A stretch of DNA of 64,000 nucleotides from Candidatus Binatia bacterium (GTDB lineage: Bacteria; Desulfobacterota; Binatia; Bin18): assembly GCA_951812575.1 (NCBI GenBank), contig OX638322.1, forward strand, positions 710,850 to 774,849. The letters are read 5' to 3'. Positions 9,137 to 53,365 of this stretch are shown piece by piece. The position numbers were made by a program, and so were the translations under genes. The first letter of the stretch is position 1; every line of letters starts with the position of its first letter. The notes under the pieces are model-generated. The model was not told the origin of the DNA. It saw nothing but the letters and a program-made list of their open reading frames with translations, and ran no database searches.

Positions 9137-11481
9137 GAGGCGAGCTCCACGACCGTTGCCCCCCCGCCCCCTTCATTCCGGGGAGCCTCGTTAAAGGACC
9201 CGCAGTACGGAGAGTCGGCCAAATACGCCCGGACCGCCCGCCTCAACGCACCGGTTCCCATGCCGTGCACGATACGCACGGACGATTGATTATTCAGGAT
9301 GGCCTGATCCAGGAAGACTTCCAAACGCGGCAGCGCCTCCCGAACTCGCAGGCCGAGCAGATTGATCTCGGGCCGGCTCGGTGGCGCATGGTCGACGGCC
9401 ACCCGAACGCGCGGCGCGGGTTTTTGCTTGGACGTCCGCTGAACCTGGACAACGGGAACCTCAAACGTCGTCCCACCGCAGCGGACTCTGGCTTTCTGGC
9501 CGTTGAGCGTCAGCAAGGTGCCCCGGATTTTCCCACCACGAAGCTCGACCTCGTCCCCAATCTGTGGCAGCGGTGTATCAGCGACGGTCTCGGTCCGGAG
9601 TGTCTGCTCTTTTGCCGCGATTTCCTTGTGCTGCTCGTGCAAGAACCGCGAGAGGTCTCGGCGGGCATCGCCGGGCGGGGCATGCGACGTCTGCTGGTTC
9701 TTGCGTAGCCGCGCGATGACCTCGCGGCCTTCCTCGCGGACACGGCGGACCAGCAGCTTGGCTTCACGCGTCTCGTCCTGCCAGACCTGACGGCATTTTT
9801 CCTCGGTTTCGGCCAGGAGCCGCTCTTGGCGCGCACGCAGGGCGGCCGCCTGTTCGCGTTCAGACTGCATCTGAGTCCGTTCACGTTCCAGCGTGACCGA
9901 GTCGGCTTCGAGCCGGGTCAAGGCTTCAGAGAATTGACGGGCTTCCGCAGACAGTGCCGCCTCTGCCGCCCGACACACGGCTTCGGGTAACCCGAGACGC
10001 CGGGCCATGGGCAGCCCGAGGCTCTGACCCATGACGTCGTACTGGAGTTGATAGCGCGGTTGGAGGGTCTCCAGATCAAACGCCACCGCCGCAATCTGAT
10101 AGCTCCCTTCTCCCACAGCAAAGAGTTTGACCGGACTCAGATGCGTGGCCAGAGCGAGGGACACCCGGCGATCTTTCAGAACGGTGAGCAGCCCGTTTGC
10201 CAGAGCCCCTCCTTCGGCCGGGTCGGTGCCGCCGCCGGGTTCGTCAAGCAGGAGAAGCGCGGGCTCTGACAGCGCCGCCAGCATGGCGCTGATATTAGCG
10301 ATATGGGCCGAGAAGGTAGAGAGACTGTGCTCCAGGGACTGGGCATCCCCAATGTCGGCAAACACGCTCCGAAAGATGGGCAGTTCATTGGCTTCGTCCG
10401 TCGGGATCAGAAGACCGCTCTGGGCCATGAGACAGATGAGACCCAAGGTTTTCAGGGCGACCGTTTTCCCACCCGTGTTCGGACCGGTAATAATCAGCCC
10501 GCGCTTATCGTTGGGCAGGATCAAATCGATAGGAACAACTGCGGTATCCGAGGCCGTCAGCAAGGGATGCCGGGCGCCACGGAGCTGGATGGCTGATCCA
10601 AAGTGCGGCTGTGTTGCACCGTATTTTTGCGCAAACACAACCTTGGCGTGAAGGACGTCGATTTCCGTCAGGGTTGTAAACGTCTGTTGGAGTTGATCGA
10701 GGTTCTCGCGCACCAGCGCGGTCAGCCAGGCCAGAATCCGGTGTTCCTCGGCCGCGACTTCCTTCTGGGCGAGCAGCAGTCTATTGTTGAGTTCGACCGC
10801 AAACAGCGGTTCAATGAACACGGTCTCACCCGACCCGGAACGGTCCTGGACGATACCCGGCAACCGCGCCTGAAAATTGGGCCGAACGGGGATGACAAAA
10901 CGGTTATTCCGAATCGTAACAAACTGGTCGGTCACTACCTCCTGGGCTTCGCTTGAGCGCAGGGTGTGTTGCAGGCGGCGTTCAATGTCCTCGCCCAGGC
11001 TGCGGACCTGACGCCGGAGTAAACGCAACGTCGGACTGGCCTCGTCTTTGAGGCTCCCATCCTCGTCCAGGCAACGGTCCAGGGCGGTCTCCAAGTCCGG
11101 CAGAGCTGGCAGGCGGTCGGCATAGCCTTTCAGGCGGTCAAACGCTGCTGCGTCCCGACGGAAAAACCCGGCAAGAAGTCGGGCGCGTGTCACCACGGCC
11201 AGAACGTCGCGGAGCTTTTGTCCCTCAAGCACGGCACCGCCGTGGTCAGCTTTCTCACAGGTCGGACGGATATCGGGGAACGGTCCGAGCGGCAGGCTCA
11301 AGCGTTCTTCTACCAGACGAAAGCACTGCCACGTTCGCTCGCTGTCTTCTTTGACGAACGGCTCGACAATCTGGGGTTTGAGGGCCAGACAGGCTTCTCG
11401 ACCGGCGGACGACAGGGCACAGTCCGCCAGAAGCTGAAGGACTTTATCAAACTCTAAGGCCAGAAGGTCGCGCTCGCGCAT
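9133..11481 (-). CDS. mutS2: Endonuclease MutS2
   Basis: Walker A GPNTGGKTVALKTLGL, Walker B LLLLDEPGGGTDP, and a C-terminal Smr domain (…VRIVHGMGTGALRRAVRAYL…). Start set at ATG 11481 (MRERDLLALEFDKV). ATGs at 11526 and 11601 are also possible. Confidence 0.9.
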   Translation of the reverse strand: MRERDLLALEFDKVLQLLADCALSSAGREACLALKPQIVEPFVKEDSERTWQCFRLVEERLSLPLGPFPDIRPTCEKADHGGAVLEGQKLRDVLAVVTRARLLAGFFRRDAAAFDRLKGYADRLPALPDLETALDRCLDEDGSLKDEASPTLRLLRRQVRSLGEDIERRLQHTLRSSEAQEVVTDQFVTIRNNRFVIPVRPNFQARLPGIVQDRSGSGETVFIEPLFAVELNNRLLLAQKEVAAEEHRILAWLTALVRENLDQLQQTFTTLTEIDVLHAKVVFAQKYGATQPHFGSAIQLRGARHPLLTASDTAVVPIDLILPNDKRGLIITGPNTGGKTVALKTLGLICLMAQSGLLIPTDEANELPIFRSVFADIGDAQSLEHSLSTFSAHIANISAMLAALSEPALLLLDEPGGGTDPAEGGALANGLLTVLKDRRVSLALATHLSPVKLFAVGEGSYQIAAVAFDLETLQPRYQLQYDVMGQSLGLPMARRLGLPEAVCRAAEAALSAEARQFSEALTRLEADSVTLERERTQMQSEREQAAALRARQERLLAETEEKCRQVWQDETREAKLLVRRVREEGREVIARLRKNQQTSHAPPGDARRDLSRFLHEQHKEIAAKEQTLRTETVADTPLPQIGDEVELRGGKIRGTLLTLNGQKARVRCGGTTFEVPVVQVQRTSKQKPAPRVRVAVDHAPPSRPEINLLGLRVREALPRLEVFLDQAILNNQSSVRIVHGMGTGALRRAVRAYLADSPYCGSFNEAPRNEGGGGATVVELAS

Positions 11482-11692
11482 AAGAAAAGGGTACTGCGGG
11501 GTCTGCCAGAGCGACCCATGCTGCATGTTTTGCACACTCCGCCCGTTCGGCGCAATACAGGGTCGTCTCTCAGGCTGAGATGCCGGGTGTCCAGGGGACA
11601 CTCGGCATGACCGGTAGGGCGTTCGGTCTCGCTTGCAGCCACTACCCCCCTATGCTAGCGAGACACGAGTATATGAACCTAAAGGAGGAAGT

Positions 11693-12061
11693 ATGAACAC
11701 CGAGAATGAAGCCCTTGTCACTGAGTTTTGCAACGCATTGGGCAGTGGGAATATGGATAAGGTGGTGTCCTATCTGGCGGAGGACGTATTCTATCATAAC
11801 ATGCCCTGGGCTCCGGTGACCGGCCATTCCGGCGTGCGTGAGGTTCTCGACCCTTTTGTTGGCGCAGATTTACTGCAAAAGATGGAGATCACCCACACGG
11901 CCTCATCTGGCGATATCGTCACCAACGAGCGCATGGAGACCTGGGTCAAAGGGGACGTCCAGGTGCTGCTGCCCGTCCTCGGCGTCTTCACCATCACCGA
12001 CGGCAAAATCAGCAAATGGTGCGATTATTTTGACAGCGGAACAATCGCCCCGTTGATGTAA
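11693..12061 (+). CDS. SnoaL/limonene-1,2-epoxide hydrolase-like protein
   Basis: 122 aa from ATG 11693, preceded by AAAGGAGGA. Pattern NEALVTEFCNALGSGNMDKVVSYLAEDVFYHNMPW…ITDGKISKWCDYFD is typical of the NTF2-like LEH family. Confidence 0.6.
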   Translation: MNTENEALVTEFCNALGSGNMDKVVSYLAEDVFYHNMPWAPVTGHSGVREVLDPFVGADLLQKMEITHTASSGDIVTNERMETWVKGDVQVLLPVLGVFTITDGKISKWCDYFDSGTIAPLM

Positions 12062-12090
12062 GCGTTGCAATAAACGCTTTTCGGAGACGG

Positions 12091-13338
12091 TCAGGGAACA
12101 AACGAGACCTTGACCGCCCCCGAGGTTTTCTTGCTGGCAGCTTCGGTCAGGGCCTGTCGGAACTGCTCAAGCGGATACTTGCGCGGGCGGATCGCACGCA
12201 GGTCCGCGCGCCGGCGTCTCAGGAATTCGACCGCGCGTACAAACGTATCCTGACGCTTGCCCCGAAACATCTCGGCTCCATACGTCAGGCTGCCCACGAT
12301 GGTCACTTCTTTCATCCAGGTCGGCGTCCAGTCCACGCCTTCGGGCAGCGCGGCCAAACCGAGCACGACAACCGCTCCCTGACCGCGCGCCATGCGCAGC
12401 GCCTGGTTGAGCGTAACCGAATTAGTAACCGTATCGTAGACCAGCCGCACCCCACCGGCCAGGACCGCGCCGCCATTGGTGAGCGGATAGACCTTGGTCT
12501 GGGCCAGTTCGCCAACCTGAGCCATGACATCCTGCTTTTGGGCATCGATAATATGCTCCGCCCCAAGGCGACGCGCCAGTCTGGCCTGGAACGGGTACTT
12601 GGCGATACACGCCACCCGACAAGACGGCTCAACGGCTTTGAGCGCGGCGATATTCATCAGCCCAATCGTCCCGGCACCGATCACAACCACCAGCTCTTTG
12701 CGTCGAGGCGGATTGTTGAGCACCGCCCGCAGACACACGGCAAACGGCTCAATCAGCGAGGCTTCATCATCATCAATCGTATCCGGCAGGGGTGTCAGCC
12801 GGTGCGCGGGAGCGACGAAATATTCGCCCCAGCCGCCGCCGGTATCGGGACAAATGCCGATTAACAGTCCGGGACGCAGCTGACCCTCGGCAATATGTTC
12901 ACAAATCCCGGGATTCCCGTTCCGGCACTGTGAGCACAGCTTCCGAAAGCCCCGTTCCCGACAGCCGAGCGTCGGATCGATGGTCACCCGTTGGCCGACC
13001 CGCAGCCCGCGCACGCGCTTGCCCACGGCGGCCACTTCGCCAAACAGTTCGTGGCCGGGAATCATAGGCAGCTCGAAATACGGCTCGGCCGCGGGCATGG
13101 GCTTCCACTGCAGAAAGCCAAGGTCGCTGCCGCAGATGCCGGAAATTTTACTCTTGACCACCACCCAGCGTTCATTGGGCAGGTCGGGGGTGGGCACGTC
13201 GCATAACTGGAGATTGGCCAGACCGGGCAAAAAGTCCGGGGCCGGCAGCGCGTCTTTCTGGGCTGTCTTGGCGTCACCCCCTCTTTTTTGGGGGGGGACC
13301 GCCGAAGGCGAGGGGGCAGAAAAAACCAATGCTTTCAT
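12091..13338 (-). CDS. Zinc-dependent alcohol dehydrogenase (MDR family) with an N-terminal insert
   Basis: SGICGSDL, PGHELFGEV, GAGTIGL motifs. About 35 extra residues follow MKALVFSAP (see findings). Confidence 0.8.
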   Translation of the reverse strand: MKALVFSAPSPSAVPPQKRGGDAKTAQKDALPAPDFLPGLANLQLCDVPTPDLPNERWVVVKSKISGICGSDLGFLQWKPMPAAEPYFELPMIPGHELFGEVAAVGKRVRGLRVGQRVTIDPTLGCRERGFRKLCSQCRNGNPGICEHIAEGQLRPGLLIGICPDTGGGWGEYFVAPAHRLTPLPDTIDDDEASLIEPFAVCLRAVLNNPPRRKELVVVIGAGTIGLMNIAALKAVEPSCRVACIAKYPFQARLARRLGAEHIIDAQKQDVMAQVGELAQTKVYPLTNGGAVLAGGVRLVYDTVTNSVTLNQALRMARGQGAVVVLGLAALPEGVDWTPTWMKEVTIVGSLTYGAEMFRGKRQDTFVRAVEFLRRRRADLRAIRPRKYPLEQFRQALTEAASKKTSGAVKVSFVP

Positions 13339-44073: not shown

Positions 44074-44343
44074 ATGGCCTCCTGGCGACTGCCACCCTAA
44101 CACTCTTGCTTCCCGACCGCTACACTACGGTGGAAACTGCTCTAGAATTTATCGTGAATTACTCTAGCGGAGAGAATGGACAAGCTCCCTACCACCCGCT
44201 GGAAGTAAAGTGGAGGAGCGGGTAAAAGCGCTGATTGCCGAAGAGATGTCGCTTCAAGACCCACGTAAGGCGCAGAGATAGGCGCGGGTTAGCCAAGGAA
44301 CTCGGCACCACCACAAGGAAGCTCCTTGATTCTTCACTGTGTG

Positions 44344-45915
44344 ATGGTCAGAATACAGGTGCATACACAAAACAGGCGGCAAACGACAGGGCTCGGCCTT
44401 TCGGCGGACGATGCGTTCATTGGCTTGGTTGACTATGGTCTATTCGGTGACAAGCTTCCGCCCTGCCTTACCTCCGAAGGACTTTCAGACCATGTATCCG
44501 AAGAGCTCTTGCCGCTAACAACAGAAAGCAATGAAAGGAAGTTGAAGAAAATTCTTAAAGGAAGAAACCATGACTTCATTCGCTACGAAGCGCTACGCGA
44601 TGTCAATATTCCTCGTCAGATGGGGGTTCCCCATCCTGACAGCTATATTGTCCAGTGCCTAGCTCTGAAGCGACATTGGGAGAAAATAAAAAAGCACTGC
44701 GCGAAACCGAAAATACCCGTGAGCCTCATCTTTGCTCGAAAAATCTCCGACAAGCGTATTTTCCAGATGAATTACAAGGGAATCGAACGTTTTGAGAACG
44801 AAGAGGCGGATATCCGCACAATGACGGGTGCTCACTATATCGTCCGTACCGATATTTCGAAATGCTTTCCGAGCATCTATACCCACTCAATCCCTTGGGC
44901 GCTGCATGGGCGTAGCAAGGCAAAAAAGAACCACTGCCTCTCGTTGCCGGGAAATCTTTTGGATAAAGCCACTCAGAATACCCGAGATGGACAGACAAAC
45001 GGGCTCCTGATCGGACCGCACACATCTAATGTTATTTCCGAGATAATACTGACCCAAATTGACCATGAGATACTCAAGAAGGGATACGATAGATTTAGCC
45101 GCAATATTGACGACTACACCTTTTACGCGAGAACCCGCGCCGAAGCTGATAACTTCATTCGTGACCTTGTGATGCAGTTGCGTGAGTACGAGCTTGCACT
45201 AAACGAACGCAAGACTGACATTCGGCCTATGCCTGTGCCAGTGGAAGAGGATTGGGTTCGAGAGTTGAACAGCTTCCGATTCCCGAACAGAGAAAAAATC
45301 AGCTTTGCTCCGGTCCAATCGTTCCTGGACTTGGCATTGAAGCTGGCGCACGGAGCAGAGACTTCTGCTGTTTTGAACTACGCTATCAAGATGGTGCCAA
45401 AGAATCTCAATAGTCGAGCCAAGCGTCTCTTTGTTCAGCATGTTGTCAACTTGGCGGTGCGATATCCGTATCTTGCTCCTCTCCTGGACGAGCATGTGTT
45501 CGCCAAACATAGCCATGATGGAATTGAGAAAGTTAAGCGTGAGTTCATTGACGAACTCCTCGCGATTGGGATTCAAAAGGTCTACCCGGATGCCATCGCC
45601 CACGCACTGTATTACGCGCTCAAATATGACCTCCAGTTCAACACGACGGAGGACAAACTCCAAGAGATAGTCACAATCGATGACTGCGTTTCGATGGTGC
45701 TGCTTCGAGAGTACGCAAAACGACACAAAATCAAAAGTATTCGTGGTGCAATCCGAGAACGGGCAAACAAGCTGAAAGGTATGGACTCCCAAGAACAGGA
45801 GCGCTTTTGGCTTTTGATCTATCAAGTGTGGAGAGAAAAAACGCTCAGAGATGAAGGCCAGACATTTCTGGCTGACCTGAAACGAGAGCGTTTCAACTTC
45901 GTCCACTTCCCATGA
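44344..45915 (+). CDS. Abi/UG-class (defence-associated) reverse transcriptase with helical C-terminal domain
   Basis: RT motifs in order: NIPRQMGVPHPDSY, VRTDISKCFPSIYTHSIPWAL, GLLIGPHTSNVISEI, SRNIDDYTFYA, LALNERKT. About 230 aa of helical tail follow. ATG 44344 (TTG 44326 also possible). Lower GC than flanks. Confidence 0.8.
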   Translation: MVRIQVHTQNRRQTTGLGLSADDAFIGLVDYGLFGDKLPPCLTSEGLSDHVSEELLPLTTESNERKLKKILKGRNHDFIRYEALRDVNIPRQMGVPHPDSYIVQCLALKRHWEKIKKHCAKPKIPVSLIFARKISDKRIFQMNYKGIERFENEEADIRTMTGAHYIVRTDISKCFPSIYTHSIPWALHGRSKAKKNHCLSLPGNLLDKATQNTRDGQTNGLLIGPHTSNVISEIILTQIDHEILKKGYDRFSRNIDDYTFYARTRAEADNFIRDLVMQLREYELALNERKTDIRPMPVPVEEDWVRELNSFRFPNREKISFAPVQSFLDLALKLAHGAETSAVLNYAIKMVPKNLNSRAKRLFVQHVVNLAVRYPYLAPLLDEHVFAKHSHDGIEKVKREFIDELLAIGIQKVYPDAIAHALYYALKYDLQFNTTEDKLQEIVTIDDCVSMVLLREYAKRHKIKSIRGAIRERANKLKGMDSQEQERFWLLIYQVWREKTLRDEGQTFLADLKRERFNFVHFP

Positions 45916-45927
45916 ACCGGTCGAAAG

Positions 45928-48771
45928 ATGTCTGAAAAAATCACCCTGACCCAACTCGAATCCTTCCTGTTCAAAGCCGCTGACATCCTGCGCGGGAAGA
46001 TGGACGCCTCCGAGTTCAAGGAATTCATCTTCGGCCTGCTGTTCCTGAAACGCCTGTCCGACGAGTTCGACCGTAAACGCGTACAACTCCGTGAGCGTGA
46101 CTTTGCTCACCTCAAGGACCAGCCTGCCCTGCTGGCGGAACTGGTTGAGGACAAGACCTCCTACGGCGAGACGTTCTTCGTTCCCGGTCGTGCGCGCTGG
46201 CATGAGACCTGGAAGGATGAGAACGGCGACACGGTTCCGGCGCTCAAGGACCTCAAGGCCGATATCGGCAACATGCTGAACAAGGCCATTGCTGCGGTTG
46301 AAGACGAGAACGACTCTCTGGCCGGGGTGCTGAAGAACAATATCGATTTCAACGCGGTCAAGGGCAAGACCAAGATACCGGACCAGAAATGGAAGGACTT
46401 GCTCGATCATTTTAACCAGCCGGGTTTCGTCTTGGTCAACGACAATTTCGAGTTTCCCGACCTGCTCGGCGCGGCCTATGAATACCTGATTAAGTATTTT
46501 GCGGACAGCGCCGGCAAGAAAGGCGGTGAGTTCTATACCCCGGCGGAGGTCGTGCGCCTGCTGGTACAACTGACCAAGCCCACAGAAGGGAATGAGATAT
46601 ACGACCCGGCCGCGGGTTCCGGTGGCTTTCTCATCCAGGCCCATCAGTACGTTGAGGAGCAGGGCGAGAACGCCAACAATCTGGCTCTCTACGGGCAGGA
46701 TTCCAACGGCACCACGTGGTCAATCTGCAATATGAATATGATCCTCCACAACATCACGAGTTTCACCATTGAGAACGGTGACACCTTGGAGGACCCGCAG
46801 ATTTTGGAAAACGGCCAGATACGCAAATTCGACCGGGTGCTGGCCAACCCGCCGTTCTCGCAGAACTACAGCCGCGCCAGTATGCAATTCACCCACCGCT
46901 TCCGCGAGTGGTGCCCGGAAACCGGCAAAAAGGCCGACCTGATGTTCGTCCAGCACATGCTGGCCAGCCTCAAGAGCAACGGTCACATGGCCACCATCAT
47001 GCCCCACGGCGTGCTTTTTCGCGGAGGCAAGGAAAAGCTGATTCGGGAACTGTTGATAAACGACGACGTGATTGAGGCTATCATCAGTTTGCCCCAAGGT
47101 CTTTTCTACGGGACCGGCATCCCCGCCTGCGTGCTGGTCTGCAACAAGAACAAACCCGACAATTTGCGCGCCAAGGTGTTGTTCATCAATGCCGACCGGG
47201 AGTATGCGGAGGGGAAGAATCAAAACAAGCTACGCCCGGAGGACATCGAGAAAATTGACTTCGTGTTCACCCACAAACGCGAGATTCCCAAATACAGCCG
47301 ACTGGTGAACATGTCGGAGATTGTGGAAAAGCACGACTACAACCTGAACATCCGGCGCTATGTGGACAACACGCCCGAGCCGGAACCGGAAGACGTACAA
47401 GCCCATCTCATCGGCGGCATCCCCGAAACAGAGGTGACGGCGCAAAGTGACACCTTCGCCAAATTCGGCCTTCAATGCGAAACCCTCTTTCAGCCCGACC
47501 GACCGGGCTACCTGTCTTTCCAGGAGGCGATTGCCAGCAAGGCCGATATCAAAGGCTGCATTGAAGCAGACCAGTCGGTCGGGCGTACCTTGGAGACCCA
47601 TCGCGCTGCCCTGGAAGAGTGGTGGAGCGTGGCTCGTGATGATTTTGCTGCGCTTGAACGGGCCAACCACGGCGGGCGAAAAATGCCGGAAGTCCGGCAT
47701 GAGTTGTTGACCACTCTCAAAGACAAGCTCGTTCCCCTGGGCGTGCTGGACGAGTTCAAGAGCGCCGGCGTGTTTGTCAACTGGTGGCAGCAGAACCGCT
47801 ACGACCTGAAAACCATTGTCTCAACCGGCTGGCATCACACCCTCATCCCGGACGACTATCTGATTGCCGCGTTTTTCCAGGGCGAGGCAAACGCCATTGA
47901 GGAATTGGAAGCCCGTATCGGTGAACTGCAAACCGAGTTGGCCGAGGCCGTGGAAACCGCGCAAGAGGTGGCTGCCCACGAACCCGACGGAGAGGAAAAG
48001 GTCACGGCCACCGTCATCAAGAAGGCCCTCAAAGCCCTCATTGACGACCTGAAGGACAGCGCGGGCGCATCCGCTCAGCGGGAGCGTGACGACCTCAAGG
48101 CCCAGGAGGGCGCTATCAAGGATATCGAGGATCAAATCAAGGTCAGCAAAGCTGCGTTGAGAGAGAAGGTCGGTGAACTGGAACTCAAAGTCCAACTCAA
48201 ACGGCTTGGCGGCGCAGGATTCACAGCCGAAAATAAGGAACTCATCCAGCAGGTCGAATCCCAGCTTGCGAATCTGGACCCACACGACAAGACCGACAAA
48301 AAGAAGATCAACGCCCTGAACAAGGACAGGGCCGCCCTTCAAGCGCGGATTGCCAAGACTGACGCAATACTGGCAGCAATCAACGGCCAACTCACCGATG
48401 ACGAAGCCAAGCGCCTCATCCTCAAAAAGCTCTACGACATCGCCAGTGCTGAACTTGAACGCTACCTTAATGCGGAAATGCGCGACTTGATTTCGGGTGT
48501 TGAGAACCTGTGGGAAACGATCCAGCCATTTGCAGAGTTCCCCCCAGGCAAGCACCTTGGCGAACTCAAGGGCAAGATGGCTATTCACGGAGATATTGTC
48601 CACATGGACTCGACTGGCGATTGGGACATAAAGCCGACGCTCGGCGAGCGATTGAAGGACCTCGAACGTAGCGGTTCCCTGGTTCGTTCGGCCCTCCCGA
48701 GGAAGCCGTTCGGGCCGGTTGGACGACGGCTCGGCGCACTATCGAGGTTTCTCGCAGAGCGCGGCGAATGA
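45928..48771 (+). CDS. hsdM: Type I restriction-modification methyltransferase subunit HsdM with ~430-aa C-terminal extension
   Basis: N-terminal [32 protein letters not shown], motif [11 protein letters not shown], motif IV ANPPFS, then [12 protein letters not shown] at about aa 480. A long helical/coiled-coil region follows to aa 947. Confidence 0.85.
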
Positions 48772-48888
48772 GCATTGCGTACGTTGATACCTCGGTGTTG
48801 ACCGACACGAAGCAAAAGCCCGGCGACACATTCCGTTACTCACCTTGTACGTTTGACGTATTACACCAAACATTCTATCGTCACCCCG

Positions 48889-49176
48889 GTGATTCAATCG
48901 TTCGGAGACAGTAAGAGTCGCCGGCTGTTCGAGGGCGGACGGCTGAGAGGCTTTCGCGGCCTTGATTACGAGCGGGCGCTGATGTTGCTTGATGCGCTTG
49001 ACGCCGCGTCTTCGCTCGCTCCGCTTCGGGCGCTTCAAGCCGTTCGGCTCCACGCACTGACCGGTGACCGACGGAGACGATGGGCAATGACGGTGAACCG
49101 GCGCTGGCGGGTGACATTTCGATTCGCGGACGGCAATGCGCACGAGGTTACTATTGAGGACTATCACAAAGGATGA
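48889..49176 (+). CDS. higB: HigB-like (RelE/ParE superfamily) toxin
   Basis: From GTG 48889: VIQSFGDSKSRRLFEG…LHALTGDRRRRWAMTVNRRWRVTFRFADGNAHEVTIEDYHKG, the plasmid-maintenance-killer pattern. Confidence 0.75.
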   Translation: MIQSFGDSKSRRLFEGGRLRGFRGLDYERALMLLDALDAASSLAPLRALQAVRLHALTGDRRRRWAMTVNRRWRVTFRFADGNAHEVTIEDYHKG

Positions 49177-49192: not shown

Positions 49193-49480
49193 ATGACGCG
49201 AGTGAAGACTCATCCCGGTCGGGTACTGCGGGCGGAACTGGAAGCGAGAGGCATGAGCGCAAACCGGCTTGCGCTCGCCATCCGGGTACCCGCAAACCGG
49301 ATTACCGCCATCCTGCGGGGCGAACGGGCGGTCACGGCCGAGACTGCCGTCCGCCTCGGGCGCTACCTGGGAACCGGCCCGGCATTCTGGATGAACCTGC
49401 AAAGCGGATACGACATCTCGGTCGTGGAGAGCGTCAAGGGGCGCATGATCGAAGGCGAGGTGCCGACCGCGGTTTCGTGA
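49193..49480 (+). CDS. higA: HigA-family HTH (XRE) antitoxin
   Basis: HPGRVLRAELEARGMSANRLALAIRVPANRITAILRGERAVTAETAVRLGRYLGTGPAFWMNLQSGYDI. Confidence 0.85.
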   Translation: MTRVKTHPGRVLRAELEARGMSANRLALAIRVPANRITAILRGERAVTAETAVRLGRYLGTGPAFWMNLQSGYDISVVESVKGRMIEGEVPTAVS

Positions 49481-52681: not shown

Positions 52682-53365
52682 ATGGACCCGGCCTACACCA
52701 TCAAACGCTCGTCAAAACGGAAAAAGTTGACGATAACCGTTGAGCGGGACCGGAGCGTCGTCGTTCGTGCCCCCGAGTCCACGCCTGAAGAAGCGATCCG
52801 GGAAGTGGTCGAGTCAAAACGTCGTTGGATTTATGAGAAGACGACGCATGGCCAGAAGTATCAGGAGCGCCCCCATCCGCCTGGCAAGGAGTTGGTGAAC
52901 GGTGAATCCGCGCTCTACCTTGGCCGTGAGTATCAAATTGAGATTATCCCGACCGACTCGACGGAGATACGTTTTGAGCGGCGTTTCCTGATCCCGGCTT
53001 CCCTGGCGGGCGAACGGAGCAATGCCCTTCGCAACTGGTACGTCAACCGCGCGAAAGAGAGGATTCTTCCAAAGGTCAAATCTATTGCGGCTATGCTCGG
53101 GGTGGAGTTTGCCAACGCGAAGATCGTGGACAATCGCTACCGCTGGGGCTCATGCACTGTCAAGAACAACGTGAATCTGAACTGGCGGCTGATTAAAGCG
53201 CCCATGTTTGTAATTGATTACGTCATCGTGCACGAACTCGCCCATCTGCTCGAAGCAAATCATACTCCCCGATTCTGTAATATCGTTCGGACACACGCGC
53301 CAAGGATGGAAAAGGCGCGGAGCTGGCTGAGGGAGAACGGCCAAATCCTTGAACAGGATATCTGA
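52682..53365 (+). CDS. DUF45/YgjP-like (M48-type) metal-dependent hydrolase
   Basis: HELAHLLEANHTPRF zinc motif. The ATG lies 2 nt after the hsdR stop, a common type I R-M companion. Confidence 0.8.
   Translation: MDPAYTIKRSSKRKKLTITVERDRSVVVRAPESTPEEAIREVVESKRRWIYEKTTHGQKYQERPHPPGKELVNGESALYLGREYQIEIIPTDSTEIRFERRFLIPASLAGERSNALRNWYVNRAKERILPKVKSIAAMLGVEFANAKIVDNRYRWGSCTVKNNVNLNWRLIKAPMFVIDYVIVHELAHLLEANHTPRFCNIVRTHAPRMEKARSWLRENGQILEQDI

Follow-up and report, generated by a model that had tools for sequence, protein, structure and literature searches.

A recent strain-level deletion removed hsdS and the hsdM tail from a long-HsdM type I restriction-modification locus of a Candidatus Binatia bacterium

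We analysed a 64,000-nucleotide (nt) stretch of a Candidatus Binatia genome (assembly GCA_951812575.1, contig OX638322.1, positions 710,850 to 774,849; hereafter the window) that carries the genes of a type I restriction-modification (R-M) system. A 947-amino-acid (aa) open reading frame (ORF), confirmed at 45928-48771 on the plus strand, encodes the methylase subunit HsdM with a long C-terminal extension, and a gene for the specificity subunit HsdS is missing. We found that hsdS was lost entirely in one deletion of ~1.5 kb, which also took the conserved last 32 codons of hsdM and the 5′ half of a Phd/YefM antitoxin gene. We therefore regard the locus, with a probability of roughly 86%, as a recently inactivated copy of a type I R-M system of the Ssp6803V or 'long HsdM' type. 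An earlier reading of this DNA, made from its letters alone (the sequence-only reading), had offered three explanations: hsdS was deleted, HsdS is supplied in trans, or the extension takes the place of HsdS.

The boundaries of the deletion are given by comparison with an intact relative, L082, whose HsdM is 92% identical to that of the window and which is syntenic downstream. In blastn alignments, L082 8004-10584 matches window 45934-48514, and L082 12139-12310 matches window 48631-48802. The intervening 1554 nt of L082 (10585-12138), comprising the last ~100 nt of hsdM, the entire hsdS and a further 218 nt, are absent from the window, where 116 nt stand in their place. The presence of hsdM-hsdS in L082 and the loss of this segment from the window support the first explanation, namely deletion of hsdS leaving a chimeric 3′ end.

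The junction falls within codon 863 and shows almost no microhomology. The intact allele reads GA/T AAG TAC GCG at this point (encoding LWDKYAVS...; the slash marks the junction). Native members of the family end in ...GVENLW-x-KYAVSS.ELE..R..TL..L.GFL.GLGY, with W, K, Y and GLGY invariant, while the window protein departs from the family directly after ...GVENLW (residue 862) and has lost the invariant K, Y and GLGY. Every invariant family column is kept in the window HsdM through residue 862, indicating that the deletion is recent.

The part of the ORF upstream of the extension is unambiguous. Residues 1-490 constitute a complete HsdM, as the sequence-only reading had stated, with Pfam matches to HsdM_N and N6_Mtase (see the table below). 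The N-terminal half scores 261.9 bits against the NCBIfam hsdM equivalog TIGR00497, above its cut-off of 242.75, and the translation shows the S-adenosylmethionine motif and NPPF that identify a type I HsdM. The extension, previously put at ~430 aa, does exist; the native one measures ~405 aa, of which 372 (residues 491-862) remain, and the last 84 residues of the ORF are not HsdM sequence. The reported absence of an HsdS signal from the window was borne out as well: a whole-genome Pfam search with Methylase_S (PF01420) gave 10 matches, none of them within C1:710850-774849, and a family-specific HsdS hidden Markov model (HMM) found no match in the window.

The window protein belongs to an already known, very large and widespread family of long HsdM proteins (~895 aa) that is modelled in PADLOC. 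Specifically, the PADLOC MTase_I profile PDLC03031 (834 positions) matches window residues 3-864 over profile positions 1-805 with 914.9 bits. In a scan of one genome per species, more than 574 relatives from many phyla were recovered at 64-92% identity, and all of them align to query residues ~3-863 only. More than 2,500 clusters are present in the protein database; their members are typically 893-898 aa long, and the named ones are called type I subunit M. Clustering at 50% leaves 648 representatives with the extension, which in the full-length ones is C-terminal in proteins of 800-960 aa; HsdM_N and N6_Mtase are present in all eight full-length representatives scanned.

Collecting these homologues also showed how their operons are built. 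The usual order is hsdM (~895 aa), hsdS overlapping it by 4 nt, variable cargo, hsdR and a DUF45 peptidase gene. With the family HsdS HMM, 73 of 80 loci show hsdS downstream of hsdM in the same orientation, including all 59 loci that have at least 5 kb of downstream sequence; the seven loci without a match are contigs that end too soon. Pfam detects Methylase_S in 51 of the 69 ORFs directly 3′ of hsdM in relatives, and the other 18 belong to accessory genes that have inserted there (YhcG/DUF1016, Fic, KilA-N, AbiE and others). The window retains the hsdR and DUF45/SprT-type peptidase pair found in the relatives and on the Synechocystis plasmid pSYSX, and lacks the downstream same-strand hsdS.

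The closest intact operons are those of L082, L085, L010 and L011, all Candidatus Binatia metagenome-assembled genomes (MAGs), and of the Dolichospermum plasmid pUHCC0315c, with HsdM proteins 84-92% identical over residues 2-862. They share with the window hsdR and DUF45, at 86-94% DNA identity, together with Phd/VapC or HigA cargo between hsdS and hsdR. Unlike the window, they keep the 32-residue tail and HsdS, which is 413-453 aa long in close relatives.

The junction is also present in contigs assembled separately, in Logan, from the sponge metagenome runs X1, X2, X15 and X16. A 1638-nt contig from X15 spans 47900-48761, including both junctions, with 0 mismatches; aligned to L082, it joins 10584 to 12139, skipping 1554 nt and holding 116 letters between. 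A 132-nt contig from X1, a run of a different study, covers 48414-48545, including 48515/48516, with 1 mismatch. X2 and X16 contain a ~96%-identical strain whose hsdM contig runs past 48515 with TAAGTACGCGGTGAG..., encoding DKYAVS, the native tail. A second contig of these two runs carries the 3′ end of hsdS, then 264 nt holding a complete antitoxin gene (A), then a fragment of another (B), indicating that the A-B junction is older and that the window allele arose by a single deletion from hsdM codon 863 to the middle of antitoxin A. Thus, the deletion is a real, recent, strain-level polymorphism, and co-occurring strains carry the intact allele. One metatranscriptome run contains only 6% of the sequence words.

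A further locus, L009 (7995-11774), 92% identical, carries a second, independent deletion. It begins ~8 nt beyond that of the window, past ...ENLWSK, and joins HsdM in frame to the middle of the HsdS first target recognition domain (TRD), which yields a 1259-aa ORF. The nearly shared starting point of the two deletions may mark a fragile or recombination-prone border between the conserved hsdM body and a variable cassette of tail plus hsdS. Being a deletion fusion without the tail, the L009 ORF is unsuitable as a natural M-S fusion for interface modelling. Another candidate for a natural HsdM-HsdS fusion, P0002 from the protein database (976 aa; 91% identical to the window protein), proved to be a frameshift read-through from the hsdM tail into hsdS, and the frameshift is probably a long-read indel error.

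Residues 864-947 of the window ORF, 84 in all, derive from two Phd/YefM antitoxin genes. The antitoxin A piece contributes the C-terminal 38 codons; it shares 71% identity with the end of the full-length protein encoded by a paralogue at G000:C1:188320-188568 and is preceded by its intact N-terminal half in the X2 and X16 contigs. The antitoxin B piece contributes the C-terminal 46 codons and the stop, and its region has 90-94% DNA identity to sequence downstream of hsdS in L082, L009, L085 and L010. Antitoxin B is intact 3′ of hsdS in L082, L010 and L085, as a 92-aa PhdYeFM protein followed by a PIN (VapC) gene. The tail itself has no Pfam match, its N-terminal Phd/YefM fold being missing; the full-length A paralogue and the B orthologue both match PF02604 above its cut-off. 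That these in-frame, C-terminal (toxin-binding) fragments still neutralise a toxin while attached to HsdM has a likelihood of only a few per cent.

Overlapping the stop codon of the ORF, an ATGA opens a remnant of vapC with ~11 codons left. The same start opens a 128-aa PIN-domain ORF in L082 and L010, and homology of the window stops at 48802. Depth is several-fold higher over the antitoxin B fragment and the vapC remnant (48632-48814) in all four metagenome runs, and a paralogue of this region lies at G000:C1:1193210-1193545 with no vapC behind it; antitoxin B has an 85%-identical paralogue at G000:C1:1193357-1193494. The raised depth and the paralogue indicate that the genome or the community contains further copies of this short end of an antitoxin gene.

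A characterised member of the family is Ssp6803V, encoded on pSYSX of Synechocystis sp. PCC 6803, in which slr6095 and slr6096 together provide M, slr6097 provides S and slr6102 provides R (PMC7296061, PMC6105098). The gene order on pSYSX is slr6095 (512 aa), slr6096 (373 aa), slr6097, a Fic gene, higB, a helix-turn-helix (HTH) gene, slr6102 and an SprT/DUF45 peptidase gene, so Ssp6803V resembles the window family in having M, S, a slot with HigB and an HTH protein, R and the peptidase. P0003, an intact HsdM 90% identical to that of the window, has 55% identity to slr6095 over residues 1-516, and its residues 529-894 align with slr6096 at 26% identity, including the terminal WDKY...GLGY block. 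Ssp6803V has its long M split into two polypeptides and has S, whereas the window has a one-chain M and has lost the last 32 residues and the S gene. Mutants of slr6095, slr6096 or slr6097 lose GG(m6A)N7TTGG/CCA(m6A)N7TCC methylation (m6A, N6-methyladenine) completely (PMC7296061), indicating that the family performs classical S-dependent bipartite type I methylation.

The solved M2S1 enzymes point to what the tail may do. Among solved structures, PacII M1 (7vru_A) comes closest to the methylase core (E 2e-88 over residues 6-492), and PacII M1M2S, EcoR124I and EcoKI (7vru/7vs4, 7bst, 2y7c) have homologous N-terminal and catalytic domains (Foldseek E 2.6e-19). The solved enzymes and the long HsdM alike end in a short helical C-terminal tail, which in the former directly follows the catalytic domain and in the latter is separated from it by ~370 residues of helical bundle and coiled coil. 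In PacII, a four-helix bundle is built from the C-terminal tails of M and the coiled coil of S, and M1M2S no longer assembles when these tails are deleted (PMC9613975). By analogy, the tail lost here (W-x-KYAVS...GLGY), which would correspond by position to the M-subunit tail that bundles with the HsdS coiled coil, probably matters for assembly.

We propose that the ancestral order was hsdM (895 aa), hsdS, phd-like antitoxin, the vapC now present as a remnant, higB, higA, hsdR and DUF45. A single illegitimate deletion of ~1.5 kb, starting in hsdM codon 863 and ending halfway into the first antitoxin gene, took out hsdS, and the frame stayed open by chance, leaving hsdM to end in 84 foreign residues. 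Lacking HsdS, the system would have neither DNA recognition nor assembly of M2S1 or R2M2S1. Because both HsdS and the conserved tail are lost, the remaining HsdM and HsdR should neither methylate nor restrict, and the system has almost certainly lost its function.

Several observations weigh against inactivation as we describe it. The ORFs of hsdM, hsdR and DUF45 remain intact and show no additional decay, which fits a recent event and would also fit retained function. The equivalence of the tails is drawn from position and pattern; profile comparison recovered the expected register but without significance (E 0.14), and neither the PDB nor the C-terminus of the genome's own short HsdM gave a significant match to a profile of the 75-residue tail. 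The insertions in slr6095 and slr6096 were possibly polar on slr6097, a caveat of the authors themselves (PMC7296061). Finally, X15 may be the source sample of the genome, which would make its contig an independent assembly and not an independent sample.

An assembly artefact, in which a collapsed or chimeric join caused the loss of hsdS, has some grounds, since the genome resembles a MAG, assembled as one contig from sponge metagenomes, and the antitoxin B region is repeated at several-fold depth. Against it stand the X15 and X1 contigs across the junction, the exact 1554-nt skip with 116 letters and the origin of the two contigs in separate studies, and we consider such a join very improbable. 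The chance that the system is active with a specificity subunit supplied in trans by another type I locus is only slightly better, and still slim. The genome does encode several other HsdS proteins (the 10 Methylase_S matches), the best of which (C1:1279849-1281264) has a conserved helix moderately similar to that of the family HsdS, and hsdM and hsdR remain intact. Each other HsdS, however, lies next to its own short hsdM. These HsdS proteins are 20-27% identical to that of L082 and score at most 153 bits on the family HMM, on which most family members score 300-500 bits. Furthermore, the window HsdM is the only long one that the genome encodes; its other HsdM proteins are just 25-33% identical and align over no more than residues 9-479. 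Exchange of subunits is known only between members of one type I family (PMC3874165), and the window HsdM has itself lost the conserved tail.

Least probable of all is that in the long-HsdM lineage the coiled-coil extension serves as a scaffold in the manner of S, so that the operon works without HsdS and recognises DNA otherwise. The extension is indeed long, helical and conserved, as the conserved regions of HsdS are, and it has no solved homologue. Nevertheless, hsdS accompanies the long hsdM wherever a relative has enough flank, an outcome that the sequence-only reading had itself named as refuting this idea, and the S gene is required for methylation in Ssp6803V (PMC7296061). In addition, the extension has no TRD-like alpha/beta fold, and the window copy represents the ordinary module cut short rather than a variant of its own.

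The helical module belongs to the normal, conserved make-up of the family; it probably serves as an adaptor linking the methylase core to HsdS and does not stand in for HsdS. Pfam gives no match, Methylase_S included, in residues ~490-947. AlphaFold2 predicts the extension to be all-helical apart from one beta hairpin, with a per-residue confidence (pLDDT) of 80-94; the extension-only model has a mean pLDDT of 85 and a predicted template modelling (TM) score (pTM) of 0.69. In model numbering, the beta hairpin is followed by a helical bundle (~74-217) and three long helices (249-316, 323-353 and 359-425) of 68, 31 and 67 residues, the last of which continues into the conserved tail. In the full-length AlphaFold2 model (P0003), the methylase core is poor (pLDDT 30-45) and the extension good (80-94); the poor core is probably due to a shallow alignment of sequences 65-91% identical to the first, and only the extension part of this model was used.

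Foldseek of the extension model against the PDB found nothing at E <= 0.001 and no HsdS chain; the top matches, with a TM score of at most 0.25, are to helical bundles of a generic kind (chemoreceptor and BAR domains). A sequence search of the extension against the PDB yielded only designed coiled coils at E >= 0.005, which we attribute to composition, and neither search found a solved structure covering the ~370-residue helical part. The nearest architectural likeness is with the 'knob' and 'paddle' of BsaXI, a type IIB RM subunit in which a gamma-class N6-adenine methylase leads into a domain of several helices and a long arm of antiparallel helices (PMC11997821). The likeness is an analogy of architecture only, with no sequence match and with BsaXI not among the top-50 Foldseek matches listed; BsaXI, unlike the window system, has R and M fused and cuts on both sides of its site.

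Within the extension, conservation peaks in a block at window 47767-47853 (residues 614-642) with invariant W, W, D, K, G, W and P. This block is present in the window, as in the long-HsdM module generally, and resembles an interaction or active surface more than a spacer of coiled coil. The extension is shared by other long-HsdM PADLOC families, PDLC03022, 03027 and 03032, only up to about these residues. In the adaptor arrangement, docking on the methylase core would fall to the bundle, and contact with the conserved helices of HsdS to the coiled coil and tail; the split into slr6095 and slr6096 fits this arrangement. The existence of slr6096 as its own polypeptide suggests that the helical module can act separately. 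A bolder version, in which the ~400-aa module is a separable adaptor subunit that replaces the short M tail and gives an M-S (perhaps M-R or DUF45) geometry unlike that of solved type I enzymes, is tentative and in our view rather unlikely.

The features of the locus are collected in the table. The neighbours named by the sequence-only reading (higB, higA, hsdR and DUF45) were confirmed by Pfam. Window hsdR has 86-94% DNA identity to its relatives, and the DUF45 peptidase gene lies 3′ of hsdR in 22 of 50 full-flank loci and likewise on pSYSX. Copies of higA, 92-98% identical, lie between hsdS and hsdR in L010 and L085. Across the family, a hotspot for cargo lies between hsdM/hsdS and hsdR: loci L009-L088 carry Phd-VapC, HigBA, Fic, AbiE, YhcG/DUF1016, KilA-N, DUF4062 or HATPase_c_4 there, and toxin-antitoxin genes occupy this slot also on pSYSX and pUHCC0315c. 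Upstream, a truncated copy of the Drt4-type reverse transcriptase gene occurs at the same position in L011 (7402-7989), indicating that the adjacency of the reverse transcriptase gene and hsdM predates the window genome.

Table. Features of the long-HsdM locus, in window coordinates.
Feature	Position	Strand	Basis or remark
Drt4 reverse transcriptase	44326-45915		NCBIfam Drt4, 455 bits; ends 12 nt upstream of hsdM
Native part of long hsdM	45928-48515	+	Residues 1-862 plus two bases of codon 863
HsdM_N	45955-46413 (residues 10-162)	+	PF12161, E 2.5e-27
N6_Mtase	46459-47379 (residues 178-484)	+	PF02384, E 7.5e-106
All-helical C-terminal module of hsdM	47380-48515	+	AlphaFold2 model; no Pfam match
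Deletion junction in codon 863 (GA/A)	48515-48516	+	blastn against L082, L009, L085 and L010; alignment; metagenome contigs
Antitoxin A (Phd/YefM-type), C-terminal 38 codons	48516-48630	+	HsdM residues 864-901
Antitoxin B (Phd/YefM-type), C-terminal 46 codons and stop	48631-48771	+	HsdM residues 902-947
vapC (PIN toxin) remnant	48768-48802	+	ATGA overlap with the stop codon; ~11 codons left
higB toxin gene, intact	48853-49176	+	Pfam HigB-like_toxin, E 6e-11
higA antitoxin gene (HTH), intact	49193-49480	+	Pfam HTH_3
hsdR, intact, 1059 aa	49500-52679	+	HSDR_N, SWI2_SNF2, ResIII, T1R_D3; TIGR00348, E 1.5e-140
YgjP-like/DUF45 (SprT-type) zinc peptidase gene	52682-53365	+	Pfam YgjP-like, E 4.7e-56

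The locus should be annotated as a remnant, with hsdM truncated and hsdS deleted, and not as an active defence or methylation system. It offers a clean case of a restriction system lost at strain level within a population of sponge symbionts, and it shows the hsdS-hsdR slot gathering and rearranging toxin-antitoxin genes. The wider interest lies in the family-level helical module rather than in the broken copy of the window. A literature search for a long HsdM or a coiled-coil extension returned nothing direct; thousands of type I methylases carry this module without a Pfam model or a solved structure, and only one genetic study touches it. If the module is indeed a separable adaptor, these very abundant proteins would form a type I family of their own, structurally uncharacterised and possibly equipped with a regulatory or docking arm.

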